From: an uncultured cyanobacterium
GTDB lineage: Bacteria > Cyanobacteriota > Cyanobacteriia > Cyanobacteriales > CAWCAG01
Length of the DNA stretch: 64,000 bases
Reading direction: 5' to 3'
Assembly (NCBI GenBank): GCA_963803805.1
Contig: CAWDOD010000006.1
Location: forward strand, 1-64,000
Position numbers and translations under genes: made by a program. Shown here piece by piece: positions 10,171 through 52,473 of this stretch (position 1 is its first letter; the number at the start of each line of letters is the position of its first letter). The notes below the pieces were generated by a model, which was not told where the DNA came from, made no database searches, and worked only from the letters and a program-made list of their open reading frames with translations.

Positions 10171-10539
10171 ATAAGAGTAGAAATTGTTTCTGAAGATGAA
10201 GGAATTATTATTAAAGGCCAGATAGATGTATTGGTTATATCCCCTCAACTTTGGGTATTAGTAATTGAATCTAAACAAGCCGCATTTTCCCTGAAGGTGG
10301 GTATTCCTCAACTACTAGCTTATATGCTTAGTAACCCTAATCCTACTCAACCAACTTTCGGCTTACTTATTAATGGTAGCAGTTGTCGATTTGTTAAGTT
10401 AGCCAGAGGAGAAGCTTCAGAGTATGGGCTTTCTAAGGGTTTTGATTTATTTAATCCTGGTAATGATTTGTACGAAGTTTTAAGAATTTTACGCTCTCTA
10501 AATCAGTTGTTAGTTGGGGAGAAGATTCCACTGAATTAA
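10171..10539 (+). pseudogene. 5'-truncated type I restriction enzyme HsdR N-terminal-like (PD-(D/E)xK) gene remnant
   Basis: VEIVSEDEGIIIKGQIDVLV...WVLVIESKQ...GIPQLLAYML...FGLLING; no upstream ATG and only the C-terminal half of this ~200-aa cyanobacterial family is present. Confidence 0.6.
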
Positions 10540-11072
10540 GATAACAATTCAGCTTCTTTGATTCTTTTTCCTTCCTTGTCTTTAGTTGATAAAATAGGTG
10601 AAGAAGAAATAGGCCAATTAATAGCTAAGTCTGGATCATTCCAAAGTAAAGTTCGTTCGTGTTGAGGTGCGTAGTAGTCAGTAGTTTTATAGAGTACTTC
10701 TGCTATGTTAGAAAGTACGAGAAAGCCGTGGGCAAAACCTGGGGGTATCCAAAGTTGGTGTTTATTTTCGGCACTAAGATTATAACCTACCCATTGACCG
10801 AAAGTAGGAGAAGAAGAGCGCATATCTACAGCAACATCAAAGATTGAACCAACTACAGCACGGACTAATTTGCCTTGAGGTTGTTGAATTTGGTAATGTA
10901 GCCCTCGAAGTACGTTTTGTTGGGAACAAGAATGGTTATCTTGGACAAAAACAGGCGATATACCGTACTCTTCTTGGAGAGTCTTGTAGTTATAGGACTC
11001 ATAGAAAAATCCCCTTTGATCTTCAAAAACTTTTGGTTCAATTAGCTTGACATCTGGTATTTTTGTAGCCAT
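10536..11072 (-). CDS. rfbC: dTDP-4-dehydrorhamnose 3,5-epimerase
   Basis: FEDQRGFFYES, VQDNHS, VLRGLHYQ, GFAHGF. Confidence 0.95.
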   Translation of the reverse strand: MATKIPDVKLIEPKVFEDQRGFFYESYNYKTLQEEYGISPVFVQDNHSCSQQNVLRGLHYQIQQPQGKLVRAVVGSIFDVAVDMRSSSPTFGQWVGYNLSAENKHQLWIPPGFAHGFLVLSNIAEVLYKTTDYYAPQHERTLLWNDPDLAINWPISSSPILSTKDKEGKRIKEAELLS

Positions 11073-11107
11073 AGTTATTATAATAATAATCTCATAATTG
11101 AATATTT

Positions 11108-11728
11108 TTAGCTTTCAACTTGAGCAGATTGAAAAACCTCTTCGGCGGTCAATTTTAATTCTGGAAATGATTTTAGTTGAATAACTTCATCGCCTCTGAA
11201 CGAAATGCTTTTGTATTCGCCATTTTCTAACTGACAAACAGTAATAGTAGGTAGCTTGGGATTACCGATAAACTTTTTCCCCCCTAAGCCCAGGTAATCA
11301 ACAATCAAATATTCTGGGATACCTATGTTTTCGTACTCTTCCAATTTCAAAGCATAATCATCACTCCAGTTAGTACTAACAACTTCTACCACTAATGGTA
11401 TTGATTCACCTTGAGAAACTGTCGATTCTTTTTCATACAAAGGTTCATTTTTTAAATTACCCTTGTTTAGTACCAACACATCAGGAGAATAAGCGGAGTC
11501 TTGAGTATCAGGTTTAACTAACACTTTTGAGGCGATGAAGTAAGGTAAATTTAAGCGGTCAAACTCTACAGTTATCTTTCTGGCTAAAAACCCTACTACG
11601 TTTTCATGCTTACCTAAAGGTTGAGCCACTTCAATAATTACCCCATTATGTAATTCGTAATGCTTGTTTTCTGGTTTCCATCTGACAAATTCTTCAAAGG
11701 TTAATGTTTTTTTAATTGTTTGAATCAT
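11108..11728 (-). CDS. Uma2 family endonuclease-like protein
   Basis: LTFEEF, YELHNG, SPDVLV, LVVEVVS, YENIGIPEYLIVD. Confidence 0.85.
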   Translation of the reverse strand: MIQTIKKTLTFEEFVRWKPENKHYELHNGVIIEVAQPLGKHENVVGFLARKITVEFDRLNLPYFIASKVLVKPDTQDSAYSPDVLVLNKGNLKNEPLYEKESTVSQGESIPLVVEVVSTNWSDDYALKLEEYENIGIPEYLIVDYLGLGGKKFIGNPKLPTITVCQLENGEYKSISFRGDEVIQLKSFPELKLTAEEVFQSAQVES

Positions 11729-11774
11729 GGCTATGTCTGCTCGAATAGATACTTATTTATTATCATTTTTCTGG

Positions 11775-12767
11775 TTAGGTAGATTGCCCAAACAACCAAC
11801 CCTTAATTTTAAGACAGTCAAAGATAAATTTGTTAACCACCAAGCGTAGGGTATTACCTTGAGATCCGTAGCCAACTAGGGTGCTGTAAATACCGAGTTT
11901 GAGAATGCTTAAACCAAAGTCGAGGCGTTGGTTGGAAAAAGGATTGATTGTTTTCTGGTCAGATTGAGGATAGAAGCGTTGGTAGAAAGCTTTGCTAAGG
12001 TTAAGGTGGACTTTGTAACTTTTGAGGGTAAGACGGCCTTTTTTGCCTAGCCACAGGGCAATTTCTTGGCGGATTGTACCAGTATCTTTTTGGATACCAA
12101 CGGTATTGTTGCTATGCTGGCGGTATTTAACCAAGGCTTTTTGAAAATGGGCTATTCTGCCGTGGTGGGAAGCAACTAAGGCAACCCAATGATCATGATA
12201 CCAACCATCCGGCTGACTTTGTTTAGGAAAAGGAAGAATGTGAGTAAGAAGGCTGCGGTTAAACATTATGGTGCAGCCAGTGACGGTGTTGCGGAGGAGG
12301 AGAAGTTGAGGGTTTAGTTTTTCCGGTTGACGATTTTCGTATTGCCAAGCAGAAGAGTGAATAGTTTTATCTTCTCCATCAATTATTTCCAGGTCTGAAT
12401 GAGCTAAAATAGCATTTTCTTTTTCCAAAGCTTTGATCAGTTGCATCAGCTTTTCTTGATGCCAGATATCGTCTTGATCGCAAAAGGCAATCTGGGTTAT
12501 TTCTGGGTCATTTTGCAGATACTTTAAACCACGTTCAAAATTGTGATTAACGCCCAGATTTTCTTGATGAAAGTGACAGATAAAGCGCTGATCTTGCTGG
12601 GAATATTGAGAGAGAAAATTTGTTAAGTTTAACTGGGAAGCATCATCACAAATATGGCAAACCCACTTAGTCCAACTTTGCCCTTGAATTGATTTTAATT
12701 GTTTGTCTAGATGTTGAAGATCAGGGTTGTATGTCGCTAGTACGACACCTATTTTTTCAGTTGGCAT
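11775..12767 (-). CDS. GT2 glycosyltransferase (rhamnosyltransferase-like)
   Basis: VVLATYN, CDDAS, FCDQDDIW, NTVTGCT, HDHW, YRQH. Confidence 0.85.
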   Translation of the reverse strand: MPTEKIGVVLATYNPDLQHLDKQLKSIQGQSWTKWVCHICDDASQLNLTNFLSQYSQQDQRFICHFHQENLGVNHNFERGLKYLQNDPEITQIAFCDQDDIWHQEKLMQLIKALEKENAILAHSDLEIIDGEDKTIHSSAWQYENRQPEKLNPQLLLLRNTVTGCTIMFNRSLLTHILPFPKQSQPDGWYHDHWVALVASHHGRIAHFQKALVKYRQHSNNTVGIQKDTGTIRQEIALWLGKKGRLTLKSYKVHLNLSKAFYQRFYPQSDQKTINPFSNQRLDFGLSILKLGIYSTLVGYGSQGNTLRLVVNKFIFDCLKIKGWLFGQST

Positions 12768-12773
12768 GAAAGG

Positions 12774-13883
12774 CTAAATAAGTTGCAGTTGACTATCATC
12801 ACCAATCATAAAACTTAAGGCTTTAGGTCTTTTCGGAGCAGGGCTAAGACTAGCGCGACGACCAATGAGACTGTCTACTATCCTTTGGTGGATATTGGTT
12901 ATTTTTGCCCCTTCGAGAATCACGCTATGGTCAATATCCGTATCTATCAGGGTCACATTATCACCAATGCTTGTATAAGGGCCAATGTAGCAGTTTTCTA
13001 AGTGACAATTTTGACCAATAATAACTGGGCCGCGTACAGTACAGTTCACTAATTGGCAACCAGAGCCTATGGTAACACGACCAATAACTTTGGAGTTTTC
13101 GTCTATTTCTCCTTCAATAAGGTTATGAAGATAACTATCCAGGATAACTCGATTAGCTTCGAGGAGGTCATCTTTTTTCCCTGTATCTAACCACCAACCA
13201 GAAAGTTGAGTTGCTTGGATATTATGTTGCTGAGTAATTAGTTGCTGGATTGCATCGGTTATTTCTAATTCTCCCCTGGCTGATGGTTTAATTTGGGCGA
13301 TCGCATAGTGAATAAGAGGAGAAAAAAAGTAAACTCCTACCAAAGCTAAATCAGAAGGAGGGTGTTGAGGTTTTTCTACTAGTTGCAAAATACGTCCATC
13401 TTCGGTCACTTCCGCTACACCAAAGGCACTAGGATTTTCTACCTTGCGTAGTAAAATCAGGGCATCAAGACTTTGTTGGTTAAATTTATCAAGAAATTCT
13501 TGGAGGCTATCTTGAATTAAATTGTCCCCCAAATACATAATAAAGGGAGAATCTTCTAAGAAAGGTTGAGCAATTTTCACTGCATGGGCTAATCCTGCGG
13601 GTTCTAATTGAAGAATATAGGTAATATTAGCCCCAAACTGGGAACCATCACCAGTGAGAGTTTTCACTTCTTCCCCGGTTTCTGGACTAATGATGATACC
13701 AATATCCGTAACGCCCGCAGCAACTATACTTTCGATGCCGTACCAAAGAATGGGTTTATTCGCCACAGGGACAAGTTGTTTAGCCCCCGTATAAGTTAAG
13801 GGGCGTAGGCGTGTACCTTTACCACCAGAGAGGATTAGTGCTTTGATAGATGGGGAATTCATCGCAACTTGGTAATTAATCAT
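12774..13883 (-). CDS. rfbA: Glucose-1-phosphate thymidylyltransferase, long form
   Basis: LSGGKGTRLRPLT, KQLVPVANKP, PSARGELEITD, WLDTG, C-terminal hexapeptide region; alternative start at 13862. Confidence 0.92.
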   Translation of the reverse strand: MINYQVAMNSPSIKALILSGGKGTRLRPLTYTGAKQLVPVANKPILWYGIESIVAAGVTDIGIIISPETGEEVKTLTGDGSQFGANITYILQLEPAGLAHAVKIAQPFLEDSPFIMYLGDNLIQDSLQEFLDKFNQQSLDALILLRKVENPSAFGVAEVTEDGRILQLVEKPQHPPSDLALVGVYFFSPLIHYAIAQIKPSARGELEITDAIQQLITQQHNIQATQLSGWWLDTGKKDDLLEANRVILDSYLHNLIEGEIDENSKVIGRVTIGSGCQLVNCTVRGPVIIGQNCHLENCYIGPYTSIGDNVTLIDTDIDHSVILEGAKITNIHQRIVDSLIGRRASLSPAPKRPKALSFMIGDDSQLQLI

Positions 13884-14763
13884 TCACTTGCAAATTATGC
13901 AGCATTTTCCTTAAACTTTGTCGCCAATGAGGAGGATGACTTCCTAAAACCTTAGTTATTTTCTGACAGGAGAGGACAGAATAATGAGGGCGTTGAGCAG
14001 GAGTAAGATATTCAGCCGTGGTAATGGGAATTACTTTTTCCACTTGCAAAGGAAATCCTAATTGTCTAGCTTCAGCAAAAATAGCCACCGCAAAATCATA
14101 CCAGCTTGCTACACCGCTATTAGTATAGTGATAAATTCCCGGTTGGATAGCTTCTTTTTTAGAGATGATTTGTACTGTAGTTTCTGCTAAATCTTTTGTC
14201 CAGGTAGGGCTACCAATTTGATCTGTGACGACGCGAATTTCTTGCCTTTCTTTACCTAAACGCAACATTGTTTTAACAAAATTACCTTTGCCATAGCTTC
14301 CATAAACCCAGGCAGTACGCAAAATCAGGTAATTATCACAATTAGCTTGGATAGCAACTTCCCCTTTTAATTTAGATTCGCCGTAGACACTTTGAGGATT
14401 AGTTTGATCTGTTTCTCGATAAGGATAACCTTGCTTACCATCAAAGACGTAATCTGTGGAGTAGTGGAGGAAAAAAGCTCCCAACTTATTTGCTTCTTGG
14501 GCAATAATGCTGGGTGCAATTCCATTTATTTGGTAAGCTAATTCTGATTCTGATTCTGCTTTATCTACAGCAGTATAAGCAGCAGCGTTGACGATGACAC
14601 TGGGTTTAGTTTCCTGAAGTTTCTTAGTAATATCATTTGGTCGAGAAAGATTGAAGTTTGTTCTGTCAAAACTAATTACCTTTTGTTTTTTCAGAGTTTC
14701 TAAAATAGGTTGTAACTCTTGTCCTAGTTGTCCGTTACTACCAATGAGTACAATATGTTTCAT
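13876..14763 (-). CDS. rfbD: dTDP-4-dehydrorhamnose reductase
   Basis: GSNGQLG, NAAAYTAVDKAE, STDYVFDG, YGESK. Confidence 0.95.
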   Translation of the reverse strand: MKHIVLIGSNGQLGQELQPILETLKKQKVISFDRTNFNLSRPNDITKKLQETKPSVIVNAAAYTAVDKAESESELAYQINGIAPSIIAQEANKLGAFFLHYSTDYVFDGKQGYPYRETDQTNPQSVYGESKLKGEVAIQANCDNYLILRTAWVYGSYGKGNFVKTMLRLGKERQEIRVVTDQIGSPTWTKDLAETTVQIISKKEAIQPGIYHYTNSGVASWYDFAVAIFAEARQLGFPLQVEKVIPITTAEYLTPAQRPHYSVLSCQKITKVLGSHPPHWRQSLRKMLHNLQVND

Positions 14764-14772
14764 ATAGTCTTT

Positions 14773-15525
14773 TTACTGACTTTTTCTACAAACAACTACA
14801 AACTCCATACCATTTTTCTGCGTTAATTCAATTTCAAAAGGAAAAGATAAGTCACTTTTACAGTGCAAAAGAAGTTCTAAAAACTCCATTTGCGTCCATA
14901 CATGAAAGTGAATGCTGTAATCAATTTCCATAGTATGTTTGATAGCAGCATCAACCTTCTCTCCTGTTACTTTATCAACTAACTTAGTCCACTCTTCAAA
15001 GTGAGAATATTTTGACCAATCTGGACCTTCTTGGTAATCTCGAATTAAGTGTTCTAGAGTTGTTACAGGGCGATCGCAGTCAAAAGTATGTCGCTTATCA
15101 GGAACTGCCATATAAAGAGTTCCCCCTGGTTTCAGCACTCTCAAGTGTTGCTCAATTGTACCTATAGGATTTTGACAATGTTCAATCATATGATTGGCAA
15201 TTACAAAATCAACAGAGGCATCTTTTAAAGATAGTAAAGTTTCTCCATCGTCAATGATGTCAACATTCACCAATTCATAACCTGCCAATTCTGGGTAGTG
15301 TTTTCTCAACTCAGCAACAGACATTCTATCTACATAGCGTACTTGAGCATGGGGTGGCACTTCTAAGGGTGAGTGCAACGCGCCAACTTCGATACCACTT
15401 CCAGATAGATAGTGCCAAGCAATTTGCCTTCGTAAAGCTTGTTCTGGTGGAATATTTTCTTTAGTAGGTAAAGGGAGATTATTTGAATTTTTAAACTTGT
15501 TGGTAATCTTCTGGAAGACTTGCAT
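14773..15525 (-). CDS. Class I SAM-dependent methyltransferase (glycan-locus type)
   Basis: GIEVGAL, DFVIANHMIEH, LKPGG, HFHVWT. Confidence 0.8.
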   Translation of the reverse strand: MQVFQKITNKFKNSNNLPLPTKENIPPEQALRRQIAWHYLSGSGIEVGALHSPLEVPPHAQVRYVDRMSVAELRKHYPELAGYELVNVDIIDDGETLLSLKDASVDFVIANHMIEHCQNPIGTIEQHLRVLKPGGTLYMAVPDKRHTFDCDRPVTTLEHLIRDYQEGPDWSKYSHFEEWTKLVDKVTGEKVDAAIKHTMEIDYSIHFHVWTQMEFLELLLHCKSDLSFPFEIELTQKNGMEFVVVCRKSQ

Positions 15526-15610
15526 TTTTTCTCTCTTTTAGATTGCTTTTATTTCGACAAATTGGATAATGCTAAACCCGGAATTAATGATATCAGAATG
15601 ACAAGACTAA

Positions 15611-17401
15611 TTAATCAAGTGAAAAATCTGCACAACTCTGGGAAAGATTGGAGTTGTAGTAAGGATCAAACTGTAAATATGGCATTCCGCTATGTAAAGC
15701 ATGAAGCTTATCAAGTTCCCACTGTTGCCAATTATCGCCTCTACTAGCAGACTCAAAATGAAGCATTTCCACATAAGGCGTAACCACATTTCTGTATCCA
15801 GCCCTAAAAAGCCTTAAACAGAAGTCTACATCGTTGTAGTTTAGGGGCAAATCCTCATTCAAAGTACCCACTTCCTTAAACTTGGACTTCTTCACCATAA
15901 GACAGGCTCCTGTAACAGCAATGTAGTTGCGATTAATCAGATTCGACAGAAAATAACCGGGATGTTCTCTGGATTCGTTGTAGTATGGATGTCCAGGATT
16001 GCCATTCAAAATGACAACACCACAATGTTGAATCTTTTCATCCGGAAACAAAAGCTTGCAACCAACAGCGCCTATGCTTTCCTGCTGAGCAAGTTCTAAC
16101 ATTGATTCTATCCAGTCAGGAGTTAAAACTTGAATGTCATCATTAAGTATCAGCAAAAAATCACCCTGAGACTCACTGATACCTAAATTTATCCTCATAG
16201 AGAAGTTGAAAGGCTTGTTGCATCTTACTAATTTAAGCTTGTCATATTCAATTCTTGCTAAGATTGCATCAGGAATGTCGTAGCCATCTACAAGGATAAT
16301 TTCGATGTTTGTGTAAGTAGTGAGGGATTTGATACTCTCTAGGCATTGTTCTAGAAGACAAACTTCCTCTCCATCAATGGAAATGCACTTAGCTGCACTC
16401 GGTATAATAATACTTACTAGAGGTTGACCAACGATATGCCGTCGCACACGATAAAAACCGCGTTGTGAGCTTTCTTCGACCCAACCAGGATAATTACTAC
16501 GTTCTAACATTGCTGCCAAGGCATTCTTCGCTGCAACATAAGCCCAAGGTTTAGCTTGTTCTCCGGAAGTGACGGAAGAGGGAATAATGCGCCAATGATA
16601 GAGAATTTTCGGAATGTGGAAAATGTTAGTGGTTTTTTCCACTACTCGCAAAACGAGGTCGTAATCCTGGGAGCCATCATATTCACTACGGAAACCACCA
16701 ATTTGACCAATTAGGCTAGTTCGATATACTCCTAAATGACAAGTATACATACAGGCATGAAAATACTCCGGCGACCAATCTGGCTTGAAAAACGGCCCTG
16801 AAAGTTTGCCCTTAGTATCTATTTTGTCTTCATCACTATAAATAAAATCTGCTTCTGGATGACTATTGATTAATTTGGCATTTTCAAACAACGCATCAAT
16901 TGTCAGTTCGTCATCATTATCTAATAGAGCAACATAGTCTCCTGTAGCTAGTTCTAAAGCAGAGTTACTGGCAACCGAAATGTGACCGTTTTCCTCCCTA
17001 AAGATAACTTTGATACGAGAATCTAGCTTGCTATATTTCTCAAGCAGAGGTCGAATATGGGGCTGTGTAGAAGCATCATCAGCTATGCAAAGTTCCCAAT
17101 CCGGATAAATTTGCTTACGTACAGATTCAATTGCTTTCTCCAGCCATTTTGCCTCAACGTTATAAACAGGCATAATCACTGAAAACTTGGGGCGCAACTT
17201 CATCTGGTCAATTTGCTGGCGGGCTTTTATTATGTCCTCATCTTTCAATTCGTTCTTTTTCAGCCACCTGCGGTAGCTTAGATTACCCTGATATTTATTT
17301 CTAATCTTTTGGTAAATAAACTTGAAGAGAGCTAAAGTTCCTTCTTCTTGCCATACTTTGTTAAGCTTGTTGAGTTTTCTGCTGATAACTCTTTCATTCA
17401 T
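15611..17401 (-). CDS. Two-domain GT2 glycosyltransferase
   Basis: FSVIMPVYN, ADDAS, YSDED, GSQDYDL; second GT2 with VSIIIP, FNFS, LNDD, AVTGACL, NDVDFCL. Confidence 0.9.
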   Translation of the reverse strand: MNERVISRKLNKLNKVWQEEGTLALFKFIYQKIRNKYQGNLSYRRWLKKNELKDEDIIKARQQIDQMKLRPKFSVIMPVYNVEAKWLEKAIESVRKQIYPDWELCIADDASTQPHIRPLLEKYSKLDSRIKVIFREENGHISVASNSALELATGDYVALLDNDDELTIDALFENAKLINSHPEADFIYSDEDKIDTKGKLSGPFFKPDWSPEYFHACMYTCHLGVYRTSLIGQIGGFRSEYDGSQDYDLVLRVVEKTTNIFHIPKILYHWRIIPSSVTSGEQAKPWAYVAAKNALAAMLERSNYPGWVEESSQRGFYRVRRHIVGQPLVSIIIPSAAKCISIDGEEVCLLEQCLESIKSLTTYTNIEIILVDGYDIPDAILARIEYDKLKLVRCNKPFNFSMRINLGISESQGDFLLILNDDIQVLTPDWIESMLELAQQESIGAVGCKLLFPDEKIQHCGVVILNGNPGHPYYNESREHPGYFLSNLINRNYIAVTGACLMVKKSKFKEVGTLNEDLPLNYNDVDFCLRLFRAGYRNVVTPYVEMLHFESASRGDNWQQWELDKLHALHSGMPYLQFDPYYNSNLSQSCADFSLD

Positions 17402-17557
17402 TGGCTAAATCTTACAAAGTAGGTGGATTAGTGTTAGCTTTTTATTACTTAAATGCGATCGCAACAGCATAGTGAGTTTCTCCCAACTATAGTGTATAAA
17501 TCATCTATAATCAGCAACAGATCTGATCTGACCACTGGCCAAAATTTAAATTTGTTT

Positions 17558-18325
17558 TTAGGCAGGTATGTGTCTAATGGCAACAACATCTTGATGATTA
17601 TCCCATCCACTTTCAATGTAAGCTTTCAGAGAAAAATCACTTTGATTGACAAGAAAACTATAAATCCAACCCAAAGAGGTCATAGAAATGCCATACATAT
17701 TTCCATAGCTTGTTTCTTTGTCGTAAGGCGCAAACCCATAGCCAACATTCTTATAACTTTCTTCCACCTTCAAAAAATCGTTATCACTTATGTTGTAGCT
17801 CATCGATTTTAGTTGTCTCCGCTTGTACATATTTCTGCCATGAGTAGTAAAAACCATCAGGCCTCCTCTTTTAAGGTGTCGAGTAAAGCAGTTTAATAAT
17901 TCAATAGCTTGTTGCTCTGGTATATGGGTTATCAACGAACCACACCAGATTAAATCGAACGATTGATGGAAGTTTATTTTAGAGAAATCTGTATCAGAAC
18001 AATAGGCAGTTGCACTAAAAGTAGAAGCGTTGAAAGCGACAGATTCTTTCCAAATATCAGCAGCAGTGAAGTCAGCATCAGGAAACTCAGCTCTTAAGTA
18101 GCGAGACACTCTACCAAATCCGCATGCAAAGTCTAAGATATTATTAACTTCCTCAACTCCACTGCATATCATCACTTTTGCAATCACTGAAATAGCAGAG
18201 CGACCAACTTCAAAATAACGCTCTACAGTACTCATATTCATATTGTCAGACTCATGAATATTCTTGATCACGTACTTATCTAGTAAGAATGGGTTTTGAG
18301 CGATTTTAGCAAGAGAAAATCTCAT
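17558..18325 (-). CDS. Class I SAM-dependent methyltransferase
   Basis: ILDFACGFGRV, FDLIWCGSLITH, GGLMVFTTHG, HQDV. Confidence 0.8.
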   Translation of the reverse strand: MRFSLAKIAQNPFLLDKYVIKNIHESDNMNMSTVERYFEVGRSAISVIAKVMICSGVEEVNNILDFACGFGRVSRYLRAEFPDADFTAADIWKESVAFNASTFSATAYCSDTDFSKINFHQSFDLIWCGSLITHIPEQQAIELLNCFTRHLKRGGLMVFTTHGRNMYKRRQLKSMSYNISDNDFLKVEESYKNVGYGFAPYDKETSYGNMYGISMTSLGWIYSFLVNQSDFSLKAYIESGWDNHQDVVAIRHIPA

Positions 18326-18394
18326 AACACTTATACATAGTAGTTTTTGAGCTTTAAGCTTAGATAAGGATAGTAGAAAAAGGCAATGTTACAT

Positions 18395-19375
18395 CTAAAA
18401 AAACTTACCTCCCTCGTAACTTTTCAGCCAACTGTGGGTTTTCTTTAATCCATCTTGAAAAGATGTCGAAGTTAGCCAGCTTAACTCTTGTTTTGCTAAA
18501 TCGCTAGCTAATACATTTTTAGAAATATCTACTGATTTTGCTTCATCATATTTAACTTCAATTTTCTTTTCCAAAACCACCTCAATTTCTTGAATTATTT
18601 CCAAAATAGAACGTCCTACACCACTGCCTACGTTGAATATTGTGTAATCTCCTTTGTAAATAGCTGCTCGTATTATTGCATCAATTACATCAAAAATATA
18701 AATGTAATCTCTAATTATATTGCCGTCTCCCCAAATAGTTATCGGTTGGTTCAACATGGCATAGGAAAGAATGGTTGGTATTATACCGTGCTTTTTATTC
18801 GTTAGTTGGTAAGGTCCAAAAGGATTACTCACTCGGAGAATACTATAATTCAAGCCATACAAATGTTTAAACAATGCTAGATACTTTTCGATTGTCAACT
18901 TGACAATTCCATAGCTACAAATTGGATCAGTTGCAGATCTCTCAGTTATGGGAAAGGTCTGAGATGTCCCGTAAACAGTGCCTCCAGAGGATAAAAAAAT
19001 GACTTTCTTAACGTTATTTTTTTGGCAGCTTTCAAGTAGTTTAATAGTATTTACTAGATTACTTTCTATGTCAAATACTTTATTAGCATTAGAATATGCG
19101 GGTAAGGTTGTACTTATTAAGTGGAAGACAATATCCATCCCTTGAGTCATATTTTGGACAAGGGAATGGTCTGAAAAATCTCCTTCGGTAAAGGCAATAT
19201 TTTGAAAAACTTCTAAAAAGTATGGAGTCCTTCCAAATCCGTAGATTTTAGCTCCATAGGATTTTAGAGTCTTGCAGAGAGTTGTACCCACAAATCCACC
19301 AGCGCCAAGAACTAAGCATTTGACACCTTTGATATTATTGACATCGAGGCTATCTGAGTAACTAGAAGTCGCCAT
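18395..19375 (-). CDS. NAD-dependent nucleotide-sugar epimerase/dehydratase (extended SDR)
   Basis: GAGGFVG, SSGGTVYG, YGIVK (YxxxK), RDYIY. Confidence 0.88.
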   Translation of the reverse strand: MATSSYSDSLDVNNIKGVKCLVLGAGGFVGTTLCKTLKSYGAKIYGFGRTPYFLEVFQNIAFTEGDFSDHSLVQNMTQGMDIVFHLISTTLPAYSNANKVFDIESNLVNTIKLLESCQKNNVKKVIFLSSGGTVYGTSQTFPITERSATDPICSYGIVKLTIEKYLALFKHLYGLNYSILRVSNPFGPYQLTNKKHGIIPTILSYAMLNQPITIWGDGNIIRDYIYIFDVIDAIIRAAIYKGDYTIFNVGSGVGRSILEIIQEIEVVLEKKIEVKYDEAKSVDISKNVLASDLAKQELSWLTSTSFQDGLKKTHSWLKSYEGGKFF

Positions 19376-19441: not shown

Positions 19442-22400
19442 TTATATGAGCTTTTGGCAAGAAGGTAGGGCTTGAGAAAGTTGCTTTAATCTCCAAGATG
19501 CTTTGCAAATTAAAAAGACCATATCTTGCTCTTTAGTAGCAGGATCTGTTGCAAAATATGTCAGCACTGATAAAGAAGAAATTGCCACCTGGAATTTTTT
19601 TATCACATCTTTCCCATAAATCCGGTAGTGTCCATGTTGTGAATGATCTGGATATCCCCAATCCTTTGTTATTTCTTGATTCATTGGATCAGGAAAAGTC
19701 AAAAATATAAAACCGTCGTCGTTAATAATTCGAGCTAATTCTTTAAGAGCTGCACAATCATCCTCGACATGTTCGAGAACATGATTGCAAATCACGAGAT
19801 CATATCTCTTATCGCTTCGGTTAACATTTGCCAAGTCCAAGGAATTTTCCTCTCCATATACCGAAACCTCATGGCTTGCAAACCATTCTGGTCTAGCTGC
19901 GCTATCTCTACTAAACTGAAGTGTTTTTAAGTCTTTCAATACATCTGCTCTATGGAGTTGCTCGAAGATATTACGAAATGCTCGATGTCGTTCTAATGAT
20001 TGACAGATCTCACAACGAGGTAGTAAACCTGTACGACTAGTTCGACCACCAGGACCATAACCAAATTTTTGAGAGCCGCATATGTTACAGGCTGAGTGCC
20101 TTAAATAATTTTGGTTTTGCCTAAACTGAGGATTGTATTTCCAAACGTATACCGATAATAAACCATAGCCCAACACATTGCTATTGTAGTTAAGATGTGT
20201 CTGTTCAAATCCAACTGATTGACACAACGTTCCAAGTTGTTGAGGTAGCAATTCATTTTCTAGTTTTTCCTCTAAAGAAAAAATGAAACATCCACCTGGC
20301 TTAATAGAGTTTCTAATCCGCTTGTCAACATGGCTTGCTGAAACTATTGTTTGTGGTACATCAGACATAATTAATATGTCAACTGGCTCTTTAAGAGACT
20401 GAAATAGTTCATCTATGGAAGTATCGACCTGTAAGAGATACTGTTCAACAGCAAACATTGAACGACAAGGTGTCTCTAATGATCTCTCCTTAACCCATGC
20501 GACTAGCTTCAAATGAATATAAATGTAAGGACTTTCTGCGAGATACCGATAAACAGAGCGACTAAAGCCTGTTGAGCCGGATAAAGGACAGGTAAAACTT
20601 TCTCTACTAGAAACTTGATTGAAATCTCCAGTCCAGCCACTAATATTACATCTATAGCCTTTTTCTTCAGCACACCATTTAACTAGAGGCAAGTCTTTTT
20701 CGTACACTGGATGTATGGCAACAGTAGATTCATTTACGAAAGCTTCAATACCAGGTCGAGTTTTGTTTGAAACTGAAATAATTTCAGGAATATCACCTAG
20801 TTCCCAACCTTTACTTTCAAGGAAATAGCTGTACTCAACATCCATATGTCCCTGGGGTAGGGCAGGATTAAACCCACCTACTTCTTTGAAAATAGAACTT
20901 CTTAGAACCCAGAGTCCACCTTGAACATGACGGAAGAGTTTATCAGGATTTTGACGAGCAAAATCTTGATTTCGGAAATGGACAAACCAGGATTGCTGCA
21001 TATATTGCAAGGCTGTCGGCCACTTTGGTGAAGAGACGAGATTTCCTGCTAAAGCAACGTTTTTATGATTTCTCATATAGTCAATGCAAATTCTTTCCCA
21101 ACCTGGCTTAACAATTAGACCTTCATTACTACAAACATAAAAGCTATATTCTCCCTCAGCCATATCTAGTGCAATATTTGAAGCCGGACCACAATAAATA
21201 TTTCTATCAAGTTCGATAAGTCGAATGCAATCTTGGCTTTGTGTAAGCGATCGCAAGTTATCAACAAAATATGCCTCGCTAGCATTATCAATAATTGTTA
21301 GTATGAAAGGCGTGGTTGTATTGTCAACGATGCTTTGAATGACTTGCTTTGTGGTTTCAAAGCTACCGATACCATCCCGACAATAGGTGACCATAAAGAT
21401 ATCAATGGGCGGGCGAGCGATCACATCTAGCAGGGTATTTACCGTTTTGGATAAACCTACTCTACTATCAACTACTTGCTTGGCATTTTCTATAACTCGA
21501 TTAATTTGCCCTCTAGACATTCCCATGACTCTCTTAAGTTCTTGGGCTAAAGCCAAGCTATCTTTTTGCGGCACTAGGAACCCTGAAATTCTATGATCGA
21601 TAAAGTCAGGAATTGCTGATACTTTTGTTCCTAAAACGGGTACACCCATACTCATTGCTTGAAAAAAGACAGTGGGCATTCCATCTACATTACCATCCTC
21701 AGCTTCGATGCAGGGTAAAATAAAAATGTCAGCCTCCGACAAAATTGATGCTATGACATCTTTCCCTTCAATAGCCCCGTGGATAAATACTTGATTTAAG
21801 TGGTTGTCTCTAACAAAATCTCGAAATTCATTCTCAAGAGGACCAAATCCATATATGTGAAACTCTACCTGGTCAGGAGCGAATTGAGCTGCTGCTTCTA
21901 AAAGGTACTTAATACCTTTCTTCTCTATAAAGCGTGCGATAGTTACAGATCTGTAACAAACTGATGATCTTTTATTTTTCTGAGAAAGCAGCTTATTCTC
22001 ATCGGAAATATCAACCAAATTGCAGTCCACTGCCTGTGGCATCATCAAAATCTTGCTAGCAGGAACATCTCTATCAATTAAAAAATCACGGTGATAATTA
22101 CCGTAAACAAATATCTTTTTGCAGAACTTGCTTCTGGAAACCTCTGTTATCTTATTTCTCTGACAATTGAGTTTATGGAATATATCGACAGCATGAGGCA
22201 TAAATGAAAAAGGAATCTGGAGCTTTTCAGCAACCAGATAAACCAGATTAGTCACGACAGGATAAACGAAGTGACTATGACACCAATTCCTACCATGCTT
22301 AACTAAAAGGATCTCTAAATCTTCCTGGTTGTGAACAAAGTATGTATCAACTTCAAATTTGATATCAGCCTTTTTGTCTGGTTGAATCGTATAGTATACT

Positions 22401-24937
22401 TTGACATCGTAACCTTCCTGAACAAGGTATCCTATTTCATCGTTAACGAAGGTTTGCGTGAGGGCAGGGAAATCATTTAATATATAAGCCAACTTTAGCT
22501 CATTTTCACTAGCACGTATAATATTCCATTGATTTTTAGTCCAAATCCTGTCACGATTTGCTTCTAAATTTTCAGTTAAAGTAATATTATTTAAGTCTTT
22601 GCTAATTTGATAGTCAGCTAATACAGCGTTAGTGAAAATTGGTGGATACAGCCAAGTATAACGGAGAATCAAATCCCAATCTACGAGTCGGGTGAGCTTG
22701 TTATCAAAGCCTCCTAGCTCGTTATAGAGTCTACGATGGTGAGAAAAAACGTTTAAATCAATGAAGTTACTCTTGACTAAATTACCCCAATCGAATGTTT
22801 GGTTTCGGATAAATGTACATTTGTTTATATTGTCTTCAACTTTAAGAGAGGCATAATGGGTATATTTCTCAGGGTTTTCGATAAAGGCAGCAGCAGTAGC
22901 TAGAAGATAATCTTGATGCCAAATGTTGTCACTATCAAGGTATGCAATCCAATCTCCTGATGCAACTGACAAGCCGTAATTCCTCGCTTCACTCACCCCT
23001 TTATGCTCTTGCCAAAAATATATAATTTGGTTGATTTTAAAATTTTCTGAATATATATTCTTTAAGTACTCTTCTGTACCATCTTCGCTTCCATCATCAA
23101 TAATAATTATCTTAAAGCTTTTAAATGACTGGTTTAGTACTGAATCGATCGATTTTCTTATGGTTTTACATCTATTCCACGTAGGAATGATTACAGAAAA
23201 ACAACGCTTCTCATTTTTGACAAGAGAACGAGCTTTAGACATATCAATATCTGTTAATATTGAAGCTTCTTGAGATTCTTTTAAACGGTGCTGTTTACAA
23301 TAAAAGCGTTTAATATTGTTAGATTTTGTAGAGGGAGATATCTCATTACTTCCAGAATTTATTCTTCTTCCTTCGTGAATACCATAATTAAGATAATGAT
23401 ATAAAGGATTTAATCCTGAATATAAAACATCAGGATTAGAGTTTAAATAATATTTTGTATCGAACTCAGCACAAGGATTTCTACCTTCTTTAAAACCGTA
23501 TTTTTCGTAATGAATAAGTGGATTGATTTGTGCCAAAAAAACATCGGGATTGTTCTTTAAATAGTATTCACTATCGAACAAAAAGTTTGGTTTTCTACCT
23601 TCTAAGTAACCATGCTGAAGATAATGTATGATAGGGTTTTCTTCTGCTTGAGCTACATCTAAGTAAGTGTTAAGATAGTATTCACTGGAGAATAAGCCAC
23701 ACCTTGCAATGAAAAATATTTTCTTGATTTTAAGAGGGTGCTTGACATAAGAAAATAATTCTTTTTTTTGCATAAGAACAATTTTTTTAAATCCTTTGAT
23801 GTGAGACTTTACTTCCCATAAATCTCGGTTTTTACTGCTTTTCATACTGTTAAGAGGATATCTATATAATTGTAATTGTTTTTTTGTATCCTGTAATTGT
23901 TTTTCTGTATCCTGTAATTGTTTTTCTGTATCCTGTAATTGTTTTTCTGTATCCTGTAATTGTTTTTCTGTATCCTGTAATTGTTTTTCTGTATCCTGTA
24001 ATTGTTTTTCTGTATCCTGTAATTGTTTTTCTGTATCCTGTAATTGTTTTTCTGTATCCTGTAATTGTTTTTCTGTGTCCTGTAATTGTTTTTCTGTGTC
24101 CTGTAATTGTTTTTCTGTATCCTGTAATTGTTTTTCTGTGTCCTTTAAGTCAGAACGTACTATTTTATTTTCTTTCTTTAAGCAACTATTTTCCTCCTTT
24201 AAACGATTATTTGTTAACTCCAAACTTTCGGGAAAAGCCTTAACTATAAACTGAAGAACTTCAGAATCACTAGATTGCTCAATAAGTTCTAACAAGTTTT
24301 GTTCAAAATCTTCTCTGTTTATTTTCGGAACTAAGTTCCCTCCAAAGATGGAACATTTTGTAATATCTACTATCTGTGGGAAATACCCAGCTTCTTCAAA
24401 CAACTTGATTACACTAGCACGTGTAAAAAAACGCAAATGGGTATTGTCTAATATTCCGAACTTTTGATAATCAAAGTTACCTTTTAGTAAAGCAAGTCTA
24501 ACAGCTCCATGAGCTACATTAGGAATTGAAGCTATGATAAAGCCTTGCTTTTTTAAAAGACCCTTGATTTCGCGTAAGGTTTTAGCTGGGTCTTTCAAAT
24601 GCTCTAATACATCTGCACAAACTACTACGTCGAAACTGTCACTTCCTAAAACATCACCAATATCTGATGTATCTAAATCAATAGTGTACACTTCATCACA
24701 GTATTGTTTAGCTACTTGAGTCATTTCGGCACTCACATCAATACCAGTAACATGGCAACCGAAATCCTTAAGGTATTGAGCTAAGGAGCCATCGGCACAG
24801 CCGATATCCAGAACCATTTTTGCTTCCTTAACTAAATTAATAATTTTAGAGAGGCTACCTTGCGGATTTAACACAGGTTTATCATCTATGCTTTTTCGCT
24901 TTCTTGAATAGTCTTTCGTATAATCGCCATTAGTCAT
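19442..24937 (-). CDS. Giant multidomain glycan synthase: MTase, heptad coiled coil, YL..PDV repeats, GT2, GT4, GT2-like, degenerate MTase-like, MTase
   Basis: VLDIGCADG/DVLEH/THLRFFT; (DTEKQLQ)n; FSVIIPTWNR/DDGS/YLDSD; FPALTQTFV/RFIEKKG/DGMPTV; MVTY/IIDNAS; CNHVLEHVEDD/HYRIYG. Confidence 0.85.
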   Translation of the reverse strand: MTNGDYTKDYSRKRKSIDDKPVLNPQGSLSKIINLVKEAKMVLDIGCADGSLAQYLKDFGCHVTGIDVSAEMTQVAKQYCDEVYTIDLDTSDIGDVLGSDSFDVVVCADVLEHLKDPAKTLREIKGLLKKQGFIIASIPNVAHGAVRLALLKGNFDYQKFGILDNTHLRFFTRASVIKLFEEAGYFPQIVDITKCSIFGGNLVPKINREDFEQNLLELIEQSSDSEVLQFIVKAFPESLELTNNRLKEENSCLKKENKIVRSDLKDTEKQLQDTEKQLQDTEKQLQDTEKQLQDTEKQLQDTEKQLQDTEKQLQDTEKQLQDTEKQLQDTEKQLQDTEKQLQDTEKQLQDTKKQLQLYRYPLNSMKSSKNRDLWEVKSHIKGFKKIVLMQKKELFSYVKHPLKIKKIFFIARCGLFSSEYYLNTYLDVAQAEENPIIHYLQHGYLEGRKPNFLFDSEYYLKNNPDVFLAQINPLIHYEKYGFKEGRNPCAEFDTKYYLNSNPDVLYSGLNPLYHYLNYGIHEGRRINSGSNEISPSTKSNNIKRFYCKQHRLKESQEASILTDIDMSKARSLVKNEKRCFSVIIPTWNRCKTIRKSIDSVLNQSFKSFKIIIIDDGSEDGTEEYLKNIYSENFKINQIIYFWQEHKGVSEARNYGLSVASGDWIAYLDSDNIWHQDYLLATAAAFIENPEKYTHYASLKVEDNINKCTFIRNQTFDWGNLVKSNFIDLNVFSHHRRLYNELGGFDNKLTRLVDWDLILRYTWLYPPIFTNAVLADYQISKDLNNITLTENLEANRDRIWTKNQWNIIRASENELKLAYILNDFPALTQTFVNDEIGYLVQEGYDVKVYYTIQPDKKADIKFEVDTYFVHNQEDLEILLVKHGRNWCHSHFVYPVVTNLVYLVAEKLQIPFSFMPHAVDIFHKLNCQRNKITEVSRSKFCKKIFVYGNYHRDFLIDRDVPASKILMMPQAVDCNLVDISDENKLLSQKNKRSSVCYRSVTIARFIEKKGIKYLLEAAAQFAPDQVEFHIYGFGPLENEFRDFVRDNHLNQVFIHGAIEGKDVIASILSEADIFILPCIEAEDGNVDGMPTVFFQAMSMGVPVLGTKVSAIPDFIDHRISGFLVPQKDSLALAQELKRVMGMSRGQINRVIENAKQVVDSRVGLSKTVNTLLDVIARPPIDIFMVTYCRDGIGSFETTKQVIQSIVDNTTTPFILTIIDNASEAYFVDNLRSLTQSQDCIRLIELDRNIYCGPASNIALDMAEGEYSFYVCSNEGLIVKPGWERICIDYMRNHKNVALAGNLVSSPKWPTALQYMQQSWFVHFRNQDFARQNPDKLFRHVQGGLWVLRSSIFKEVGGFNPALPQGHMDVEYSYFLESKGWELGDIPEIISVSNKTRPGIEAFVNESTVAIHPVYEKDLPLVKWCAEEKGYRCNISGWTGDFNQVSSRESFTCPLSGSTGFSRSVYRYLAESPYIYIHLKLVAWVKERSLETPCRSMFAVEQYLLQVDTSIDELFQSLKEPVDILIMSDVPQTIVSASHVDKRIRNSIKPGGCFIFSLEEKLENELLPQQLGTLCQSVGFEQTHLNYNSNVLGYGLLSVYVWKYNPQFRQNQNYLRHSACNICGSQKFGYGPGGRTSRTGLLPRCEICQSLERHRAFRNIFEQLHRADVLKDLKTLQFSRDSAARPEWFASHEVSVYGEENSLDLANVNRSDKRYDLVICNHVLEHVEDDCAALKELARIINDDGFIFLTFPDPMNQEITKDWGYPDHSQHGHYRIYGKDVIKKFQVAISSLSVLTYFATDPATKEQDMVFLICKASWRLKQLSQALPSCQKLI
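23871..24143. repeat. In-frame 21-bp tandem repeat, 13 copies (DTEKQLQ heptad on the minus strand)
   Basis: Unit TGTAATTGTTTTTCTGT(A/G)TCC, 273 bp; the synonymous A/G variant is in units 10, 11 and 13, and unit 1 encodes DTKKQLQ. Confidence 0.97.
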
Positions 24938-26253
24938 AAAACAATTGAATTTACTTTCTTACAGTAGCTATTTATACTAACTTCCATTGGGACATAGACC
25001 ATAGCGTGAATTCGTTTCCCAGAAGTTGGAGGTAGAACTAAAAACGTTAGGGCATTATCTACCCAGTCAAAAGTTGTATTGGTGTAGTCCTCTGACACTG
25101 CCACCGTCAAGCTATAGGAACCAGGTTTGAGAGGTATACGGAACTGAAAACATACTTCTATTTCTTCACTTTGCGAGAGTGAACCAATTTCAGTTCCTTC
25201 TTGTAGGGTATTACTACCAATGACTTCATTGCCATTGCGGTCACAAATGAAAAAGCCTACAATAGCGGACTCTAATCTCTCAAGACATCTTAAAGAGACA
25301 GACAAACTTACTATTTCATTAAAATCGCAAGAGCTATTGTCAGTTAGGATTTGTCCTGAATCTGTTTTAAGCAAAATTCTCTCAATCTTTGCTTTGCCAC
25401 TACCCCTGCGAAAAGATTTAGGCACTGCTTCAATAACTTCAACTTCCTGATTTGATTTTTCACTAACTGCCTGCTCAATAATCTGCGTTTTCTTTCCATT
25501 GTCATACTCACTCTTAACCTGCTCATCAGTAATCAACTTCATATACTTTGCTAGGACAGCATCTGGCTTACCGAAAGCCCTAGTTATTCCCAGATGCAGC
25601 ATAACGGCCCAGGTACATAATGTTTTAACGCTTCCAGGGCTATGAGAAACAAATAGTGTTGTTGTTCCTTGCTCCATCATGTTTCGCATCCGTTTCATAC
25701 ACTTATGCTGAAATGCTGCATCTCCTACGGCTAACACCTCATCTACGATCAAAACATCTGGGTCAACACTACTTGCTACTGCAAACCCCAACCGCGCACG
25801 CATTCCGCTTGAATATGTCTTAACTGGCTGTTCAATAAATTCTCCAATATCTGCAAACGCTGCAATCTCATCAAAACGATTCTCAATTTCTTCCTGACTC
25901 AATCCCAAAATACGCCCATTAAAAAAGACATTTTGCCGCCCCGTAAACTCAGGATTAAACCCACTCCCCAACTCCAACAAGGCCGACACCCGACCATTCA
26001 CCTGTACCGCACCACTTGTCGGTTGCAAAGTTCCGGCAATAATCTGCAACAACGTACTCTTACCCGACCCATTACGGCCAATAATTCCAAATGTCTCCCC
26101 CTTGGGAATCTCCAAATTAATATCCCGCAAAGCCCAAAATTCCTCTGCCCTAATCTTTCCTGGTAATAGTAATTCCTTAAGCTTATCTATAGGACGAGCA
26201 TAGCGTTTATAACACTTTGAAACATTTTTCAGGGAAATAGCAACTTCACCCAT
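24934..26253 (-). CDS. wzt: Polysaccharide ABC transporter ATPase with C-terminal carbohydrate-binding module
   Basis: GRNGSGKST, YSSGMRARL, VDEVLAVGD, C-terminal Wzt_C-like beta domain; stop overlaps the start of the giant gene. Confidence 0.9.
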   Translation of the reverse strand: MGEVAISLKNVSKCYKRYARPIDKLKELLLPGKIRAEEFWALRDINLEIPKGETFGIIGRNGSGKSTLLQIIAGTLQPTSGAVQVNGRVSALLELGSGFNPEFTGRQNVFFNGRILGLSQEEIENRFDEIAAFADIGEFIEQPVKTYSSGMRARLGFAVASSVDPDVLIVDEVLAVGDAAFQHKCMKRMRNMMEQGTTTLFVSHSPGSVKTLCTWAVMLHLGITRAFGKPDAVLAKYMKLITDEQVKSEYDNGKKTQIIEQAVSEKSNQEVEVIEAVPKSFRRGSGKAKIERILLKTDSGQILTDNSSCDFNEIVSLSVSLRCLERLESAIVGFFICDRNGNEVIGSNTLQEGTEIGSLSQSEEIEVCFQFRIPLKPGSYSLTVAVSEDYTNTTFDWVDNALTFLVLPPTSGKRIHAMVYVPMEVSINSYCKKVNSIVL

Positions 26254-26352
26254 TACTTCCACCAAAAATTGAATAGCTAGTTAGTAAGACTTGGTAACAC
26301 TTCATACTCTTTATAATATATTCACTTTCATCGCAGTCACATAGGTGATAAC

Positions 26353-26955
26353 TTATAGAAGCCTTAATGCTTGAGAAAGTAGATGACGGCAAGCACTTCT
26401 CTTTAATTGTTGACTAAGTTTTAACTTACTTTTTTGTGCTACTAAAATAGAATCATGCCACATATCACTGCTATCTTTGTAACCTTGGTCTTTCCAATAA
26501 GTGTTGACTTCAACGACATCTAAAGCACCAAAACGTGCAATTGCAGCAAGCCCATCTGGATAGAATCGCCAGCAGTCAACAGGATAGCGATGTTCAGGTC
26601 CACTAGAGGGTGCAATAATGCAACATAAACCATTTGGTTTTAATACTCTGCTTACTTCTAAAATAGTCAACCAGAAAAATTCAATATGCTCAAAAGCTTG
26701 ACCAGATATTAAGATGTCAATCTGAGCATTCTTCAACTCTCGCCAGCAGTAAGGATCTGTTAATACGATATCCACATTTTTACCCGGAGTTGCATCTGCC
26801 CCTACATAAGTCCAACTGGGTTCATTGAAGATGGGTTTATAAGTTCCATTAACATCCTGACTACCCAAATCTAGTATCGTCAACTTCTCTGATTCTTTGC
26901 CTTTCAAGTATTTATTCCTGAAATGCTTCATTTTATCTAAAGAACTTAAATGCAT
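26353..26955 (-). CDS. Class I SAM-dependent methyltransferase
   Basis: ILDLGSQDVNG, ISGQAFEHIEFFW, EHRYPVDCWRF. Confidence 0.8.
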   Translation of the reverse strand: MHLSSLDKMKHFRNKYLKGKESEKLTILDLGSQDVNGTYKPIFNEPSWTYVGADATPGKNVDIVLTDPYCWRELKNAQIDILISGQAFEHIEFFWLTILEVSRVLKPNGLCCIIAPSSGPEHRYPVDCWRFYPDGLAAIARFGALDVVEVNTYWKDQGYKDSSDMWHDSILVAQKSKLKLSQQLKRSACRHLLSQALRLL

Positions 26956-27065: not shown

Positions 27066-28259
27066 TTATAATACATCAGCAAACCCTGGACGCAAGCGCC
27101 GATATACCCCCAACCCTCCAGCAAAAACAACTAGCGCAACAATAAAAGCAAAACTCCACTCCTCCCAGTGGGTAACTTCTCCTGTCAAAACCAAATCTCT
27201 ATAAACTTGTGTGATTGCAGCCAAAGGATTTAGCCAAAAAACCCAACCCCGAAACTGTTCAGGGATAACACTAGCCGGATAAACAATAGGAGTCAAGTAA
27301 AAGCCCAAATTTAATAACACCCCCAAGGTTTGAGGAATATCTCGCAAAAACACTGTCAATCCAGCACAAAGATACCCTAACCCCGCCGTTAGAAGCAACT
27401 GAGGCAACCAAATTAAGGGGAGGAGGGCTAAAGTTTCATGGAGCTTTCCCGTGGAAAAAGCTACTAAAATAATCAAAGCAGCTAAACCCAAAGAACTCTC
27501 TATAAAAGTAGATAGGACTGGTACAAGGGGTAAGAGAGTGAGGGGGAAAACCACTTTCTTAACTAAATTAGGCTGTCTTACTACTGAACCAGCAGCTTGA
27601 GTTAAACCACCAGTAAAAGCAATCCAAGGCAATAGTCCAGCAAATAGCCACAAGCCAAAACCAATGTTGTTATCTGCGGGCAACCCTCTAGAACTGAGCT
27701 TAACCTTGAGTACAATAGAAAAGACATAGGTATAGATAAGTAACTGAGAAAGTTGATTCAATAGGGGCCAAAGATTACCTAACACTGAACCCTTATAACG
27801 AGCTTCTAAATCTCGCCTCACTAAAGTCCGCAGTAAATCGAACTTAGCTTGCCAACTCGGTTTAATCGGTAATCGTTTGCCAATCCTCAATACTCTAGCC
27901 AAACCTGCTTTTAAAAACCTCTTACTTTTCCCTAACAGGTAAAAAGGAAAGCGATCGCGGGGTAATTGTTCCCGAAAAAAGGAATAACCAATAAAAAGCA
28001 ACCCAAGCCCCCCAGCTAGCCCCCTCAAAAAACGTAGTGCTTCAGCCTCAACATGACCAAAATAGCCCACCATACCCAACATCAAGGCTAAGGCAATTAA
28101 GGTACTACCCAAAGCCCAGCTTGAACTACCTTTATGTTTAGAGATAAGGGGGATTTTTCCTAGTTTGGGATGCCCTCGATAAACGAGGAAGGAAAAGTAG
28201 AGAAAAACAATACCGAGTATTAAACCTATTAAAGGTCTTGACATAAAAATAAGGGCCAA
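27066..28259 (-). CDS. wzm: Polysaccharide ABC transporter permease with extra N-terminal membrane domain
   Basis: LVRRDLEARYKGSVLG, PNLVKKVVFP, FYLTPIVYP, LNPL; about 115 extra hydrophobic residues upstream; start uncertain. Confidence 0.85.
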   Translation of the reverse strand: MALIFMSRPLIGLILGIVFLYFSFLVYRGHPKLGKIPLISKHKGSSSWALGSTLIALALMLGMVGYFGHVEAEALRFLRGLAGGLGLLFIGYSFFREQLPRDRFPFYLLGKSKRFLKAGLARVLRIGKRLPIKPSWQAKFDLLRTLVRRDLEARYKGSVLGNLWPLLNQLSQLLIYTYVFSIVLKVKLSSRGLPADNNIGFGLWLFAGLLPWIAFTGGLTQAAGSVVRQPNLVKKVVFPLTLLPLVPVLSTFIESSLGLAALIILVAFSTGKLHETLALLPLIWLPQLLLTAGLGYLCAGLTVFLRDIPQTLGVLLNLGFYLTPIVYPASVIPEQFRGWVFWLNPLAAITQVYRDLVLTGEVTHWEEWSFAFIVALVVFAGGLGVYRRLRPGFADVL

Positions 28260-52434: not shown

Positions 52435-52473
52435 AAAATTAAAAATTAGAAATTAAAAATTAAAAATTAAAAA
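52435..52473. repeat. AAAAATT heptamer tandem repeat (STRR-like)
   Basis: About 5 units: aaaatt aaaaatt agaaatt aaaaatt aaaaatt aaaa. Confidence 0.6.

Follow-up and report, generated by a model that had tools for sequence, protein, structure and literature searches.

A 1831-residue putative terminator-polymerase, encoded in the 64,000-nucleotide stretch of DNA analysed here (the window; contig CAWDOD010000006.1 of an uncultured cyanobacterium), is predicted to carry its N-terminal methyltransferase on a coiled-coil stalk, three quarters of which is supplied by a near-perfect array of thirteen 21-bp DNA units. We consider it rather probable that the protein builds and caps a glycan exported by Wzm/Wzt, and that the copy number of the array should shift the modal length of the chain. 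From its N-terminus the fusion protein consists of a methyltransferase, a coiled coil, a basic amphipathic helix, HYxxxGxxEGR repeats, a GT2, a GT4 and a second GT2 module, an unassigned part and a methyltransferase-like domain, located in the window as follows.

19442..24937, minus strand: fused putative terminator-polymerase of 1831 aa (ORF, Pfam).
24230..24937, minus strand: N-terminal class I SAM methyltransferase, the putative capping head (residues 1-236; Pfam at 37-185, AF2).
23861..24223, minus strand: predicted coiled-coil stalk of ~18 nm (residues 239-359; models, and coiled-coil families at about 239-360).
23870..24142, minus strand: 13 x 21-bp array encoding (DTEKQLQ)12 and DTKKQLQ (residues 266-356).
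23744..23827, minus strand: basic, moderately amphipathic helix, putative membrane anchor and fusion junction (residues 371-398).
23363..23695, minus strand: three HYxxxGxxEGR-type repeats, without a Pfam family and kept in the orthologue.
22802..23197, minus strand: GT2 module 1 (Pfam, residues 581-712).
21476..22495, minus strand: GT4 (GT-B) module, ending at residue 1154.
20879..21400, minus strand: GT2 module 2 (residues about 1180-1353).
19625..19891, minus strand: C-terminal methyltransferase-like domain.

The preliminary description of this DNA had reported a near-perfect repeat of thirteen 21-bp units, and this was confirmed both by TRF, which called 23871-24148 with a period of 21, 13.2 copies, 98% matches, zero indels and a score of 521, and by the count in codon frame, which gave 13 units from 24142 to 23870 on the minus strand inside the ORF 19442-24937. 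The further statement that every unit is one DTEKQLQ heptad held for units 1-12, but unit 13 carries two changes and reads DTKKQLQ, which is still one heptad. The Asp codon is the sole difference among units 1-12, being GAC in units 1, 3 and 4 and GAT in the others, with units 5-12 identical. At the other six positions one codon is common to all 12 units, for which the chance under the codon usage of the genome is ~1e-15, and the array has therefore been expanded or homogenised recently, as had been claimed. It is the best-scoring period-21 array in the 5.3-Mb genome. Stalk, array and unit lengths were calculated with the helix rise of 0.1485 nm per residue; the 91 residues of the array correspond to a helix of ~13.5 nm and one unit to 1.04 nm, in agreement with the earlier figure of about 1 nm per heptad. 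With each 21-bp unit being one heptad, both the frame and the heptad register are kept when a unit is gained or lost, and this claim also stands. An ORF on the plus strand at 23884-24243 was rejected as a gene, being the antisense shadow of the repeat.

Misassembly of the array was checked by read depth in one public run, X1, which is possibly the source sample. Array depth on the X1 contigs was 34.8 and 39.3, and the weighted depth of the flanks was 4.4. The resulting ratios were 7.9 and 9.0, compared with 7.0 and 8.7 expected from the assembly; if the highest depth in the flanks (6.2) is taken instead, they become 5.6 and 6.3. These depths are consistent with ~13 copies, give or take one or two units, as a rough measure from a single run, and rule out gross misassembly only. 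No variant was seen in run X1, run X2 gave fragments only, and runs X3 and X4 contained nothing of the stretch. We regard it as very improbable that the copy number or the gene fusion is an artefact of assembly, even though one base is missing from the G run of a chlH-like gene in the assembly, an 8-A run sits at the fusion junction, no single X1 contig spans the array and the array of a related locus (L139) contains an N gap. Besides the agreement of the depth ratios with ~13 copies, a single X1 contig covers the junction (23467-23914) without gaps or differences, the ordered GAC/GAT variants appear biological, and fused forms are common among homologues.

The coiled coil proposed for the array was supported by the structure models, with one long helix and a parallel bundle, and by Pfam coiled-coil families. 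AF2 with a 64-row alignment gave a mean pLDDT of 84.4, a confident head and an unbroken helix over residues 239-367, and the single-sequence fold (mean pLDDT 43.4) was used for the helix only. A three-copy model of residues 175-400 scored 0.57 against 0.00 for the best of 3 controls. In the two-copy calibration, from which the three-copy job differs, 20 of 30 solved pairs attained the score mark, as did 1 of 23 single chains; the score leaves the oligomer state unfixed and could pass through likeness to solved coiled coils. Run-to-run contact agreement was at least 61% and partner pLDDT at least 68, and the best contacts were in register, at Thr323/Leu327 and similar positions; Leu and Thr occupy the core positions within the array. 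The stalk is accordingly modelled as an in-register parallel coiled-coil bundle. The basic helix at 371-398, preceded by a proline, has a pLDDT of about 45-50 in AF2, a moment of 0.51 (top 5% of windows) and a diverged MxSSKFWKLR motif, and would as a putative membrane anchor bind the membrane.

The nearest solved fold to the head was 3cc8, an uncharacterised methyltransferase, and WbdD was absent from the 40 fold matches listed. In sequence the head matched WbdD at E 4e-6 to 1e-5, a match that was confined to the SAM-binding part and ranked lower than many unrelated methyltransferases. There is no kinase between methyltransferase and coil, the methyltransferase being followed immediately by the coil from residue 239. 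A search of 40 relatives gave no close orthologue of the head (best 43% identity), and the plasmid and phage collections gave partial, distant matches only.

Upstream of the fusion gene lie wzt, the stop codon of which overlaps the fusion gene start, a small methyltransferase gene and wzm; downstream are an epimerase, methyltransferases, GT2 proteins and rml-type genes. The GC content of the cluster is slightly low (0.370 vs 0.398).

24934..26265, minus strand: Wzt with a C-terminal carbohydrate-binding domain (Wzt_C domain).
26353..26955, minus strand: stand-alone methyltransferase, also present in locus L133.
27066..28259, minus strand: Wzm, ABC2 membrane domain, its true start probably downstream of the ORF start.
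10536..19375, minus strand: rest of the cluster, with an epimerase, two methyltransferases, two GT2 proteins, RmlD, a nucleotidyltransferase and an RmlC-like protein (so labelled by sequence likeness only).

The likeness to the geometry of WbdD and WbbB that had been pointed out was upheld: wzm and wzt stand alongside the fusion gene, the Wzt has a C-terminal binding domain, and in the predictions the methyltransferase head is distal on a long coil with the polymerase modules at the opposite end. In the largely syntenic cluster of L133 (genome G445; 52-73% identity) the head-plus-stalk (407 aa) and the polymerase (1444 aa) are separate genes, which the fusion gene joins at residue 389 or so, and the L133 stalk has a different array of its own (21-bp x 5.5, unit LSQTETK). 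A sister species (G001) has a different cluster at the same chromosomal position, in which a sulfotransferase lies between wzt and wzm, followed by a 21-bp x 7.0 array (96%), the sole TRF match in 20 kb, and then by MKSSKFWKLR; the Wzt of G001 matches that of the fusion-gene cluster in the ATPase part only. Near-perfect arrays whose period is a multiple of 21 were found in 14 of 30 loci of the G001-type sulfotransferase family, G001 included.

Searching for the head in shorter proteins returned 1920 at E up to 1e-30, and in most of the best 120 of these 1920, which were examined, MxSSKFWKLR ends the coil. Both spacer anchors were found in 96 of the 120 proteins; the four closest heads, which are without the anchor motif and hence outside the mod-7 count, are among the 24 left out. 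Among proteins below 70% identity, with spacers of 55 to 307 residues, 23 of 32 spacers shared a single class mod 7 and 6 of 32 belonged to a second class, four residues off, which may represent a stutter; moduli of 3, 4, 5, 6, 8, 9 and 11 gave top shares of 0.19-0.38, and none above 0.38. The spacer of the fusion protein is 132 and belongs to the main mod-7 class when aligned on SSK, its Trp coming three residues later than the Trp of the family. The Leu column of the array coincides with the Leu column of the family (68% L, 80 spacers) and the Thr of the array with a Thr/Ser column. P0003, among the four closest heads, has a spacer of 150 in another mod-7 class and a non-helical-looking linker. 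At the DNA level 35 of 80 genome loci were kept, 34 from cyanobacteria and 1 from a close relative, with Wzt inside the flank in 32 of the 35. TRF found an array in 19 of 35 spacers, the best period being a multiple of 21 in 17 of these 19. Of the 35 spacers, which cover 14.3 kb, 8 contained a near-perfect array (at least 85%, at least 3 copies), and 13 such arrays were present in 631 kb of other DNA, which amounts to a ~27-fold enrichment per kb over a control unmatched for coiled-coil content. As judged from these loci, predicted stalks built from repeats are common in this cyanobacterial protein family.

Variation in unit number, as foreseen in the preliminary description, was borne out in the family, where near-identical alleles differ by whole units, but at this locus no second allele of the fusion gene was found, the protein being alone in its 90% cluster. 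Microcystis-type alleles whose flanks were 100% identical on both the N- and the C-terminal side had spacers of 118/132/146, 62/132, 146/160 and 132/174, and P0019 and L060, with 99% identical heads, had spacers of 104 and 188; short-read assembly can miscount arrays, some of these differences may be misassembly, and P0024 and P0295, the contigs of which have almost the same length, may be one organism assembled twice. The DNA unit in G149 is 42 bp x 8.7 (98%). The metagenome DNA scan for the allele series of P0104 gave 1 short locus with the array absent, and of 17 genomes from the genus to which G149 belongs, 1 had the gene; because these scans gave little DNA, the allele series rests on protein records and one DNA locus. 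Grouping 155 distinct proteins at a head identity of at least 90% gave 18 groups; spacer length varied in 11 of these groups, and in 9 of the 11 by multiples of 7 only. It varied in 4 of 4 perfect-repeat groups versus 7 of 14 without (Fisher p = 0.12).

The mechanism that we favour would operate on a surface glycan, an O-antigen or similar polymer, exported by Wzm/Wzt. The GT modules, lying close to the membrane, would lengthen a lipid-linked chain, while the modelled parallel coiled coil would keep the N-terminal methyltransferase ~18 nm off, and by the example of WbdD, WbbB and ORF6 the chain would be methyl-capped once long enough; the cap would then be recognised by the Wzt binding domain, in which pocket residues are conserved. 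The array is expected to be slippage-prone, and a unit gained or lost here would change the reach by ~1.04 nm with frame and register kept, so that copy number should shift the modal chain length. By analogy, repeat gain and loss probably changes chain length in this organism. Coil length and polymerase occupancy are both described as setting chain size in WbdD systems (PMC11231755); the fusion would fix the ratio of head to polymerase, and stalk length would therefore be left as the main variable.

A capping role for the head can be examined through Wzt. The best PDB match of the cluster's Wzt was Aquifex Wzt, the binding domain giving 40 bits against 17 and 13. The binding domain of Aquifex aeolicus Wzt is described as binding a 3-O-methyl cap in a pocket formed by L300, T346, A348 and W362 (PMC9445017), and these residues map to F339, T387, A389 and W401 in the cluster's Wzt. 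Aquifex His350, His355 and Tyr233 are not conserved, and the capped sugar therefore probably differs from that of Aquifex. Among methyltransferase loci the binding domain was in the flank in 31 of 36 and the pocket was of the Trp type in 30 of these 31, and among sulfotransferase loci (1.5 kb flanks) the binding domain was present in 9 of 30, with Arg replacing Trp in 9 of 9, kin in these counts not being independent. The sole methyltransferase locus with an Arg-type pocket was L041, in which a sulfotransferase was not found. The pocket thus switches with the type of head, as predicted for a head that adds a terminal cap, and this co-variation supports a capping role, putatively at the non-reducing end of the chain. 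An unlikely alternative in our judgement is that the head decorates, the stalk setting methylation sites along the chain or just oligomerising, with chain length set elsewhere. The head is only distantly like WbdD, the cluster has several methyltransferases, so that the cap could also be added by one of four methyltransferase domains besides the head, and methyl and sulfate decorations do occur on cyanobacterial glycans (PMC4390846), all of which would suit a decorating enzyme. Against this alternative, the Wzt binding-domain type follows the head type of the stalk, as is expected of a head that makes the terminal cap, and a coiled-coil protein is described as a characteristic marker of terminators in such systems (PMC11231755).

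Whether copy number is a selected dial is a separate matter, and here neutral slippage in a tolerant stalk, where whole-heptad changes alone survive and no tuning against phage or grazers is involved, explains the DNA pattern equally well. Such slippage is compatible with the ruler explanation and disputes the adaptive claim only. Near-perfect heptad arrays were also found in unrelated proteins of the same genome (C7:221767, C9:17946), which leaves register-filtered neutral slippage and adaptive tuning about equally probable. Spacers lacking perfect repeats shift in 7-residue steps as well, no TRF array was found in 16 of 35 spacers, and in the Fischerella group the spacer is fixed and non-repetitive, being 104 in all 15 distinct sequences. 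Less readily accommodated are the ~27-fold enrichment per kb over flanking DNA, itself unmatched for coiled-coil content, the repeated, independent appearance of arrays, differing in their units, on two types of head that are unrelated, and the fact that the largest length ranges (62-174, 104-188) belong to repeat-bearing groups. Selection by phage on glycan length, which had been suggested at the outset, is speculative; LPS is reported as a cyanophage receptor, and Synechocystis Wzm/Wzt are reported to export EPS, not O-antigen (PMC4390846). Rather doubtful is a broader reading in which cyanobacteria would share a modular cassette of a swappable methyltransferase or sulfotransferase capping head, a slippage-prone heptad array, an SSKFW anchor and a Wzt with a matching binding domain. 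The array would then be a contingency locus, selected because it adjusts glycan length in graded and heritable steps against phages or grazers, and sulfate would be a widespread terminal cap recognised by Wzt domains of the Arg type.

If the length of the chain does depend on copy number in the terminator-polymerase, the array would provide graded in-frame surface variation, unlike the on/off switching of phase variation, and glycan length could be predicted from the repeat count as a sequence marker. The natural allele series with identical flanks (spacers 118, 132, 146) would test the ruler model without engineering, and the co-variation of head and pocket predicts sulfate-capped glycans. 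No paper on variable tandem repeats in the coil of an ABC-pathway terminator was found among titles and the beginnings of abstracts, with subscription literature thinly covered. Mann 2019 is said to survey the chemistry of terminators and the binding modules of Wzt, and the methyl/sulfate pairing may have been described there already.

The fusion protein resembles ORF6 of K. pneumoniae O7 and WbbB of O12, as far as these are described, in its N-terminal capping enzyme, central coil and C-terminal GTs together with wzm/wzt, and ORF6 also in that the N-terminal enzyme is a methyltransferase; ORF6 orthologues in cyanobacteria are mentioned in the same source (PMC11231755). Unlike in ORF6 and WbbB as described there, no kinase or CBM separates the head from the stalk, the GT modules number three (GT2, GT4, GT2) and are joined by a C-terminal methyltransferase-like domain, and the stalk is encoded by a near-perfect DNA array (PMC11231755). 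Assignment as WbdD O9a or ORF6 O7 proper was rejected for the absence of the kinase domain, and as WbbB proper since the N-terminal domain is a methyltransferase and not a Kdo-transferring GT. A methyltransferase on a parallel coil, as modelled here, is shared with WbdD from E. coli O8/O9a and from K. pneumoniae O3/O5, the coil of which is ~20 nm against ~18 nm here and in which insertions and deletions in the coil are reported to shift modal chain length (PMC3482155, PMC5082667). The amphipathic helix that follows the coil in WbdD has a putative counterpart in the basic helix at 371-398. The split orthologue in L133 has the layout of WbdD plus WbdA. Unlike WbdD, the fusion protein shows distant sequence likeness only, is without a kinase and is fused to the polymerase, and control by WbdD/WbdA stoichiometry could therefore hardly work in the same way.

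H. pylori FutA/FutB likewise combine an enzyme head with tandem heptad repeats and adjoining amphipathic helices, and their copy number is reported to range from 2 to 17, to vary in populations and on passage, and to track the size of the modified O chains (PMC2583950, PMC5358919). The head of FutA/FutB is a decorating fucosyltransferase and no ABC-pathway terminator (PMC2583950, PMC5358919), so the likeness is one of working only and no homology is claimed; FutA/FutB proper were rejected, as the fucosyltransferase head is absent. The surprise is limited, because each half of the mechanism is already established on its own, one in enterobacteria and the other in Helicobacter. By analogy, the fusion protein would work like the WbdD/WbbB geometry joined to the repeat genetics of Helicobacter FutA/FutB, as one example of a common, apparently little-described variant.

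Two regions of the 1831-aa fusion protein could not be assigned to a Pfam family.

Window 23363-23695, minus strand: three HYxxxGxxEGR-type repeats
Window 20108-20677, minus strand: 190-residue domain with a Cys motif

The repeats had no Pfam match, are conserved in the orthologue at the start of the polymerase, and perhaps bind glycan or a partner. The Cys-motif domain lies after the second GT2 module and before the methyltransferase-like domain at the C-terminus, and had no significant match in the Pfam search.

The exporter gene wzm and a gene labelled chlH-like by its sequence were compared with the sister genome G001.

Window 27066-28259, minus strand: Wzm ORF
Window 4948-8933, plus strand: chlH-like gene, split, with a break near 6576

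Relative to Wzm of G001 (275 aa) and of the syntenic locus L133 (298 aa), the ORF carries about 120 additional N-terminal codons and was probably called over-long at its start. The chlH-like gene is broken by a 1-base deletion within a G run, probably a sequencing error, and homopolymer indels are therefore present in the assembly.

Three further features were recorded. The first has a presumed likeness to the beginning of a DUF262-type protein and is apparently truncated.

Window 35445-35765, minus strand: short ORF of 106 aa
Window 50630-50755: 33-bp x 3.8 coding repeat inside a short ORF (TRF)
Window 52435-52473: 7-bp x 5.6 repeat (TRF)

In G001, a different head was found adjoining wzt/wzm.

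L134:7824-8921: sulfotransferase, repeat-built coiled coil and SSKFW motif, with counterparts in L136-L165

The sulfotransferase head family had matches in 142 of the 401 genomes of the order, and the Wzt binding domain was Arg-type in all cases where it was seen (9/9). L041, where an Arg-type Wzt domain adjoins a methyltransferase-stalk gene and no sulfotransferase was found inside the locus, is an exception to this pairing of head and pocket. The sulfotransferase-stalk-SSKFW proteins are candidate sulfate-capping terminators.
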